The notes beneath the pieces are model-generated. The model was given only the letters and a program-made list of their open reading frames with translations, searched no databases and was not told the DNA's origin. A DNA stretch of 58,417 nt, counting the filler, from Basidioascus undulatus (taxonomy: Eukaryota), in assembly GCA_000826855.1 (NCBI GenBank). It is 3 parts of 3 records of this genome, joined end to end, with 100 filler letters (N's around TTAATTAATTAA, not from the genome) between each part and the next. Parts side by side here need not be neighbours in the genome. Positions count along the whole stretch, not along the records: positions 28,173 to 58,417 come from JTLS01000113.1; 2 more parts are not named here. The stretch is one strand, 5' to 3'. Every line of letters starts with the position of its first letter. The stretch's first letter is position 1. Shown piece after piece: positions 32,552 through 35,483 of this stretch. The position numbers were made by a program, and so were the translations under genes.

Positions 32552-35483
32552 ATGCGTGTCACCCGCGCTCTTCGCAACGCCTCCCAGGCGTCCCCTGCTC
32601 TTCGCGAGCGTGTCCGTCGTCCGGCGCTGCTCAACAAGTACGTCGCGGACCCCGCCACGCTCGTAGACCAGTTCAAGAACGATGGTGCGTCTTGTGGTTG
32701 CTCCAAACCTCACCGCACATCCTCATCCTCCTCGCGAGCGCAACAGACTACATCGGCTGGTCGGGCTTCACCGGTGTTGGCTACCCCAAGGTGCGTCTTC
32801 TTACGTCTTCTCTCGCGGGCGGCGATAGCTGACGGTGGCTGTACTATCTCCAGACCCTCCCCACCGCCATCGCCGACCATGTCGAGCAGAACAATTTGCA
32901 AGCCGACCCTGCCACGAAGAAGAAGTTTAACCTCTTCGTCGGCGCCTCGGTCGGTCCGGAGGTTGAGGACCGCTGGGCTCGGCTGGACATGTGAGCCACC
33001 GTCTCCAGATCTCGTGTCACGCTGATAAGCTAAACTTGGTTGCGAACTGCGAATCCTCAGGATTGAGCGCCGCTACCCTCACCAGGTCGGCAAGGAGATC
33101 GCGAAGGGCATCAACGAGGGCCGGATCAAGTTTGCGGACAAGCACCTGTCCAGTGCGTCTTCTCGTCTTTGACATCAGGCCGACATAGCAGCGATCTGAC
33201 TCCTCGTGCCGTTTCACAGTGTTCCCGCAAGACCTCACTTACGGCTACTACAGCCTGCACAAGAAGCACGGCAACCCGAAGAAGCCCCTCGACTGGGCCG
33301 TCGTCGAGGCCACGGCCGTCACTGAGGACGGTGGGATCGTCCCCGGTGCGTAAAACATCCACCTCACTCGCTGCGTTGCCTGAATGCTGAAGATGCGGTA
33401 CAGGTGCCTCCGTCGGTGCGACGCCCGAGATCCTCCAGTCTGCGGACAAGATCGTGATTGAAGTCAACACCTCGCTACCCAACATGGAGGGCCTCCACGA
33501 CATCAACCAGTCCTTCCTCCCCCCCAACCGCCAGCCCTACGTGCGTCTTACCAGCAGCGCAACAAGCATGGGCGTCCAGCTGATGTTCCGTGCTTGGCAG
33601 CTCATCGTCGACCCCCGCGACCGTATCGGCAGCACCTCCATCCCGATCGACCCTGACCGTGTCGTTGCCGTCATTGAGTCCAACAAGCCCGATAACACTG
33701 GCAAGAACGCTCCTGAGGTTCGTGTTTCTGAACTCATTCACATCACGGTTAGCGAGGATTGACCACGCAGACGGCGGGCAGAACGACGAGTCGCGTGCCA
33801 TCGCCAAGCACCTCCTCGAGTTCCTCGACAAGGAGGTCCAGGAGGGCCGTCTTCCCAAGAACCTGCTTCCTCTCCAGTATGCGATAGCTTCTCGTGCGCC
33901 TTGGTGAAACGCCCTCACTGACAGTTCTCGCTCAGGTCCGGCATTGGCAACGTCGCCAACTCCATCATCGGCGGTCTCGCGGACGGTCCGTTCGAGAAGG
34001 TTCAAGTTTGGACCGAGGTTCTGCAGGGTGAGCTGCTTATCCGCCTTGCGCCGAGCGATGCCTGATACGGACGTCCGCCGTTGTTTACAGACGTACGCGA
34101 CATTCCACTTGTGACCGAGTCTGCCCTGCAGTCAACTCACTCTGCCATTGCAGACCTTCATCCGCTTCTTCGACTCCGGCAAGCTCGACTTCGCCACTGC
34201 GACCTCCATTCGCTTCTCGCCCAATGGCTTCGAGCACTTCTATAAGAGTACGCCTTAGCCCATCGTCGAAATTCTTCATCTCCTTTCCTACGCTCATGAT
34301 CTGCCTTTTGCCGGACAGACTGGGCCAACTACAAGGACCGCCTGCTCCTCCGTTCGCAGCAGGTTGCCAACTCCCCGGGTACGTTCCATCAGCGCATCAT
34401 GACTACTCGGCCTGACTGATTGGCTTTGCAGAGATCATCCGCCGTCTCGGTGTCATTGCCATGAACACCCCGCTCGAGGTTGACATCGTACGTATACCCC
34501 GCGCAGCTGCGCGCTTCGGCGGTCCAAGTGTCTGATTCCTTGTTCCAGTACGCCCACGCCAACTCCACCAACGCGCTCGGCTCGCGCATGCTCAACGGGC
34601 TTGGGTATGCGTTTCACTTGGTCGCCTACTGCGCGCTAAAAGCTGACTCGGTTGACTCAGTGGCTCTGCGGACTTCCTCCGTAACGCGAAGCTCTCCATC
34701 ATGCACACCCCGTCCTCGTGCGTTACATGCTCTGCTTCTGTCCGGTTATAATCCTTACTAATGCATTTCATTACCGCAGCCGCCCTACCAAGACCGACCC
34801 GCACGGCATCTCCTGCATCGTTCCCTTCGCGTATGTCTTCTGCCCCTCTACTCCCACTGCATCGGCAGACTGACAACCCGCATAAACAGTACTCACGTCG
34901 ACCAGACCGGTCCGCTTTCATCTAACCTCCTAGCGTTGCGACTCTGACGATTCTTCATTCTACAGAGCACGACCTCGACGTCGTCGTGACTGAGCAGGGT
35001 CTCGCTGACCTCCGTGGCCTCTCGCCGCGCGAGCGTGCGCCGGTCATCATCGAGAAGTGCGCCCACCCGGTGTACCGCGACCTTCTCCACGAGGTGAGAA
35101 TCGGCAGCACCAGCGGTGTTCACTGAAGATCTAACTGATGGTGCTCTGCACAGTACTACGACCGCGCTCTGCACGAGTGCCTTGCTCGCGGTGCTGGCCA
35201 CGAGGTGAGCTTGAACCGTCAACTGTTGGTCTTCACGACCTGCACTGACAATTTCTTTCTTTCGCCAGCCTCACATGCTGAGGGTACGCAAGCCAAACGA
35301 TCCTGGAGATTCTCAAGACCTTACTAACGTGTTCCTGCCGCATCGCGCAACAGAACGCGTTCAAGGTACGCATGCGCTGCACAGTGATCCTTCATACCGC
35401 GAGGCTGACACGTCTCGCGTCGGCCGCAGATGCAAACCCACTTCATGGAGAAGGGCACCATGAAGATCTCCGGCTGGGACTGA
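32552..35483 (+). CDS. ACH1: Acetyl-CoA hydrolase/CoA-transferase, mitochondrial presequence, 22 exons
   Basis: [129 protein letters not shown] and GHEPHML. Confidence 0.97.

Follow-up and report, generated by a model that had tools for sequence, protein, structure and literature searches.

A two-nucleotide exon, very probably genuine, at the catalytic motif of an ACH1-type gene

Recursive ratchet points and fungal stwintrons are removed by two consecutive splicing reactions, in which an acceptor and a donor almost adjoin and nothing is left in the messenger RNA. The present analysis concerns two bases, AC, at positions 34091-34092 of a 58,417-nucleotide (nt) stretch, filler included, of the Basidioascus undulatus assembly GCA_000826855.1; this whole stretch is called the window. 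The two bases lie between two short introns and are very probably a genuine internal exon of an Agaricales ACH1-type gene, present in the mature message.

Exons shorter than a codon have been described in fungi and in plants. In Coprinopsis cinerea, 89 gene models contain an exon of 3 nt or less, and 57 exons of 2 nt are found in 50 genes (PMC12230235). Dropping the micro-exon produces a premature stop in 63 of these 89 models, and missed micro-exons break gene models (PMC12230235, Cell Genomics 2025). The CYP621A P450 genes of Fusarium contain a 1-nt exon that is kept across 20 orthologues, is confirmed by public RNA reads and was missed by automatic annotation (PMC12940212). The Arabidopsis APC11 gene has a constitutive 1-nt exon, for which its authors find exon definition implausible and consider intron definition, with removal of the introns one after another in a recursive-like manner, to be likely (PMC4674806).

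The AC exon is the same kind of object as the ultra-short exons of C. cinerea and occurs in the same order, the Agaricales, but ACH1 was not found named in the text of that report (PMC12230235). What is added here is the link to a catalytic motif, together with a comparison to loci from which the introns are missing. Like the Fusarium CYP621A exon, it is a fungal, sub-codon exon within a conserved motif, essential for the reading frame and flanked by AG and GT; unlike that conserved 1-nt exon of an ascomycete P450, it is 2 nt long and belongs to an Agaricales CoA-transferase (PMC12940212). It shares with APC11 a length below one codon and the mechanism proposed, whereas APC11 is a plant gene with longer introns that was studied with reporter constructs, and the present case is known from sequence alone (PMC4674806).

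Two other classes were considered for the site and rejected. It is not a stwintron, since two coding nucleotides stay in the transcript and each intron keeps intact signals of its own, neither interrupting a splice signal of the other. Nor is it a zero-length recursive splice site, since AC stands between AG and GT and stays in the transcript. Although it is no zero-length ratchet point, the AC site may work like one, with stepwise removal. Literature searches found no paper on an ACH1 micro-exon, and the AC exon of ACH1 is a new case of an exon kind already known rather than a new class.

The gene that contains the site occupies the following interval:

32552..35483, plus strand: ACH1-type acetyl-CoA hydrolase/CoA-transferase gene, ATG to TGA, 22 exons, 21 GT..AG introns, 542 amino acids (aa)

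The model was built by hand, from the ATG at 32552 to the TGA at 35481-35483. As an independent check, a spliced aligner was written that matches a protein to DNA and accepts introns of any of the three phases; with an Armillaria protein (P0033) as guide, it returned the identical 21 introns, the two around AC among them. Over its full 542 aa, the model has 85% identity to P0033; for many further Agaricales proteins, annotated as acetyl-CoA hydrolase or acyl-CoA carboxylate CoA-transferase, the identity is 82-85%. The translation of 34926-35126 matches PF13336 (E 2.3e-14, 54 bits, cut-off 23.7). Single-exon translations, which are too short for PF02550, gave no Pfam match to it at E <= 0.01, and P0033 carries both PF02550 and PF13336 in precomputed annotation. 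P0033 also matches PDB entry 8dh7 ('Acetyl-CoA hydrolase'), which we take to be the yeast Ach1 enzyme, with E 2.2e-226 over residues 13-542, and the window exon that runs up to the site matches the same entry with E 8.3e-07. Judged by homology, PF13336 and the 8dh7 match, the gene is an ACH1-type acetyl-CoA hydrolase/CoA-transferase, and ACH1 is also the name that it had been given in the original prediction from the sequence. Its family, the Ach1/AarC-type class I CoA-transferases, is that of PF02550 plus PF13336. There was no sign of an antisense gene: the 218-aa minus-strand open reading frame at 33475-34131 is without Pfam match.

The site itself is made up of the following elements:

33936..34027, plus strand: exon 9, 92 nt, ending ...TGG ACC GAG GTT CTG CAG G, supported by the spliced alignment and the hand model
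34028..34090, plus strand: intron 9 (upstream intron), 63 nt, phase 1, GTGAGC...TTTACAG, absent from the X3 contig described below
34062-34066, plus strand: branch-like motif CTGAT of intron 9, its A 25 nt from the 3' end
34091..34092, plus strand: 2-nt exon AC, bases 2 and 3 of an Asp codon (G+AC), supported by the X3 joint, by a unique canonical solution and by the homology-guided aligner
34093..34153, plus strand: intron 10 (downstream intron), 61 nt, phase 0, GTACGC...CATTGCAG, absent from the X3 contig
34136-34140, plus strand: branch-like motif CTCAC of intron 10, its A 14 nt from the 3' end
34154..34247, plus strand: exon 11, 94 nt, starting ACC TTC ATC

Direct reading of the window letters found every base of this architecture where the original prediction had placed it, and its coordinates, intron lengths (63 and 61 nt) and motifs were all borne out. 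Exon 9 codes for SGIGNV...VWTEVLQ, and its last base opens the Asp codon. Introns 9 and 10 each have a GT donor, a CTNAY branch-like motif and a CAG acceptor of their own, and they match the other 19 introns of the gene in length, donor type and CTNAY motif, with branch distances that fall within the spread of those introns. The 21 introns have a mean length of 62.0 nt (standard deviation, sd, 4.6; range 53-71), so both are of normal size, as had been claimed; a single intron of 126 nt (34028-34153) would lie about 14 sd outside the lengths found in this gene. The donor GTGAGC of intron 9 recurs in introns 3 and 19, and the donor GTACGC of intron 10 in introns 11, 20 and 21. A degenerate pattern for the whole architecture, W-T-E-V-L-Q-G/GT..AG/AY/GT..AG/ACNTTY, has one match in the window and none in 100 shuffles. 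Together with the gene-typical introns and a spliced contig that contains AC, this result places the arrangement of two introns around AC beyond chance.

The spliced contig comes from one of three sequencing runs (X1, X2 and X3), all of them listed as 'DNA?' and none on record as RNA, which were compared with the 3,301 bases at 32400-35700:

32436..35566, plus strand: extent of the cDNA-like contig of run X3, which is free of introns and has 1,828 nt at a word depth of 258

At the site this contig reads CTGCAGG-AC-ACCTTC: its joint 34027->34154 skips 126 bases, and the letters between the two sides are AC. The joints of the contig fall at the modelled introns, and its 1,828 nt equal the 3,131 nt of the genome less the 1,303 nt contained in the 21 modelled introns. 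It corresponds to the 22-exon model with 116 nt upstream and 83 nt downstream, ends that resemble untranslated regions (UTRs). From its intron-free state we infer that X3 is a complementary DNA (cDNA) data set. X1 and X2, which come from two samples and two studies, are whole-genome DNA; in each of them 32400-35700 is covered without interruption, and deviating letters, gaps and joints all number 0. The cDNA sequence cannot be derived from the genomic stretch by one deletion. Two deletions can produce it in 16 ways, and only 1 of these 16 solutions has GT..AG on both introns, namely 34028-34090 with 34093-34153. The spliced sequence that the original prediction proposed to look for is thus present in a contig that is probably cDNA. 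The outcomes that it had named as counting against the exon, a cDNA without AC, another in-frame acceptor or a 2-nt assembly error, were not seen in the X3 contig, X1 or X2.

The reading frame and the protein motif agree with the inclusion of AC. With AC the product reads TEVLQ-D-TF, and of 120 homologues 108 have an intact E[VI][LIM]Q-D motif; 7 of the remainder do not reach the site and 5 are disturbed at the Q/D junction. If 34028-34153 is removed as a single intron, the frame is shifted, as the original prediction had stated; a stop follows 31 codons on, and the omission of AC costs the product its C-terminal 217 residues. The claim that ACH1 requires AC is upheld by the X3 contig, by the homologues and by the P0033-guided alignment, which picked AC unaided. 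The translated stretch 33922-34026 aligns to residues 265-297 of AarC (4eu3_A), with the Glu of WTEVLQ on residue 294. In AarC, Glu294 is the nucleophile (PMC4876117). Because the Glu of WTEVLQ falls on this residue, the Asp that is completed by AC lies four residues past the catalytic glutamate.

Several observations weigh against this reading of the site. Its transcript support comes from one assembled contig of one run, whose library type is unrecorded ('DNA?') and whose cDNA status is deduced; moreover, contigs lose rare variants, and AC-skipped or other minor isoforms may have been missed in this way. The architecture pattern has 0 matches in metagenome contigs. An intron at codon 325, the codon at issue, occurs in 0 of 10 aligned intron-bearing fungal loci, two of which (L009 and L016) are from Agaricales; in these two the DNA runs straight through the site as CAGGACACCTTC or CAAGATACCTTC.

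The relatives were taken from a search that yielded 80 loci. The motif pair was matched by 18 of them, all of which (18/18) read Q-D-T uninterrupted; the other 62 fail the regular expressions, and L012, L013 and L025 of these were aligned further. L009 (1709-4050) and L016 (807-3281) are metagenome contigs with complete Agaricales ACH1 genes, 84-87% identical to Agaricales proteins. They contain 12 and 14 introns, respectively, versus 21 in the window, and thus the number of introns in ACH1 varies widely within the Agaricales. The comparison of intron positions with orthologues, which the original prediction had suggested, showed that 8 of the introns in L009 and 11 of those in L016 lie at positions used in the window gene, and that none of the ten loci has an intron at codon 325. 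Judged from these sequences, the distribution fits a gain of introns in the lineage of the window or a loss in the others. An introner-like origin was tried and rejected: the pair of introns 9 and 10 scores 5 against -0.4 +/- 4.5 over all intron pairs, and copies of introns elsewhere in the window amount to 11-15-nt matches only, with no long copy.

In five homologues an insertion or deletion begins or ends precisely at the Q/D junction: P0060 (+2 aa), P0083 (+18), P0086 (+20), P0088 (-19) and P0107 (-14), from Lentinula aciculospora, Tephrocybe sp., Tricholomella constricta, Sphagnurus paluster and Tricholoma furcatifolium, respectively. Their sequences have the look of faulty gene models where an intron falls at this codon, and would suit one intron there or two. 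They agree with the original prediction that gene predictors will likely miss the exon, although they are no proof of it. They were rejected as proof of a shared micro-exon, since a single phase-1 intron gives the same protein patterns. Four of the five belong to Lyophyllaceae or Tricholoma, and the N-terminal exon of the window, used as a protein query, has its sole match in Lyophyllum atratum (P0087, 67%). One intron or more at this codon may therefore be common to the Lyophyllaceae/Tricholoma group, as these matches hint. No annotated protein of the source organism was among the matches of the protein homology searches. A separate observation concerns the Rhodotorula-like protein P0103, which has an insertion of 18 residues between VWT and EVLQ; the insertion resembles an intron left unspliced in the model, though not at the AC site but one codon ahead of the catalytic Glu.

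As for the mechanism, introns 9 and 10 would each be recognised across itself (intron definition), as is expected, and usual, in fungi whose introns measure about 60 nt. The acceptor of intron 9 and the donor of intron 10 are 2 nt apart; two spliceosomes therefore cannot sit there together, and the introns would be removed successively, in a process resembling recursive splicing, except that two bases stay. The donor context GAC/GTACGC is unchanged by the removal of intron 9, because position -3 is G either way. Since it is the same before and after this step, the sequence favours no order of splicing.

An RNA helix that might impose such an order is predicted at the upstream donor, in both the minimum-free-energy and the centroid structures:

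34021..34029, plus strand: 5' arm of the helix, CUGCAGGGU, predicted 9 base pairs, in which 7 nt from the end of exon 9 are followed by the GU of intron 9
34123..34131, plus strand: 3' arm of the helix, GCCCUGCAG, inside intron 10 and upstream of its branch-like motif

Introns 9 and 10, which are absent from two other Agaricales loci and eight further intron-bearing fungal loci, may have been gained as a pair next to the catalytic glutamate in one lineage, with the splicing order enforced by this helix, but such a scenario is unlikely. The upstream donor would be released only once intron 10 is gone, and would thereby be kept from joining the downstream acceptor and skipping AC. The helix is the longest complement of a 5' splice site among the 21 introns (8 perfect pairs versus 4-6), although it goes only weakly beyond chance, being reached in 46 of 2000 shuffles. 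The local RNA fold is no more stable than those of shuffled sequences (z -0.64): of 200 shuffles, 56 reach the same or a greater stability.

Other explanations of the site were weighed. AC could be a real exon whose inclusion is a regulated switch, in which skipping shifts the frame, exposes the transcript to nonsense-mediated decay and so tunes the output of ACH1. The early stop that follows upon skipping, 31 codons on, is what such a switch would use; the upstream donor and the downstream acceptor are both canonical, so that the skip is chemically possible, and minor isoforms are invisible in contigs. X3, however, yields the AC form only, with no second contig over the site, and the 126-nt intron that skipping entails is far beyond the 53-71 nt range of the gene; a switch of this kind is quite improbable. 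The main product could also arise by another in-frame route, with the AC form as a minor one, since two alternative donors keep the frame. Donor 34018 (GTTCTG), joined to acceptor 34153, gives the product WTE-TFIRFF, in which VLQD beside the catalytic Glu has been deleted. Donor 34111 (GTGACC) inserts the 6 residues VRDIPL inside the motif that most of the homologues keep intact, and requires an intron of 43 nt, below the 53-nt minimum of the gene. Neither form is seen in the X3 contig, and the chance that either is the main product is very slight.

The last alternative is an artefact, either a 2-nt error in the assembly or an X3 contig whose source was not RNA but either a processed copy in the DNA or a gene model that had been deposited. 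In its favour, X3 is without an RNA record, and X1 or X2 is possibly the source of the window, in which case the two are not both independent. However, X1 and X2 equal the window over all 3,301 bases with 0 differences and contain no joined form, which makes an assembly indel or a retrocopy unlikely. The X3 run, in addition, contains 35% of the sampled words, close to the share of 31-letter words of the gene that are wholly exonic (about 36% by our own count), and its contig, whose ends are UTR-like, reaches a word depth of 258, as against 47.5 in the DNA run of the same sample. An artefact of either type is accordingly most improbable. The explanation preferred here is that AC is a genuine 2-nt exon of the mature message.

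The same gene contains three further small exons:

34890..34909, plus strand: 20-nt exon, in the hand model and the spliced alignment; in the bin 34842-34952, the depth of X3 corresponds to some 19-20 covered bases
35269..35283, plus strand: 15-nt exon, in the hand model and the spliced alignment; inside the 25 letters at the X3 joint 35204->35428
35354..35365, plus strand: 12-nt exon, in the hand model and the spliced alignment; in the same 25 X3 letters, its last two bases (AG) fitting the right side of the joint

Each of the four smallest exons of the window gene (2, 12, 15 and 20 nt) involves an intron that is absent from L009 and L016.

The locus is compact, and its 126 nt could serve as a minigene for the order in which introns 2 nt apart are removed. 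A gene predictor that merges introns 9 and 10 would yield a truncated ACH1. The models of five related mushroom ACH1 genes are broken at this codon, and micro-exon-aware alignment would therefore probably repair several public models. The ACH1 gene provides a clean worked example in which an essential part of an enzyme depends on an exon shorter than a codon.

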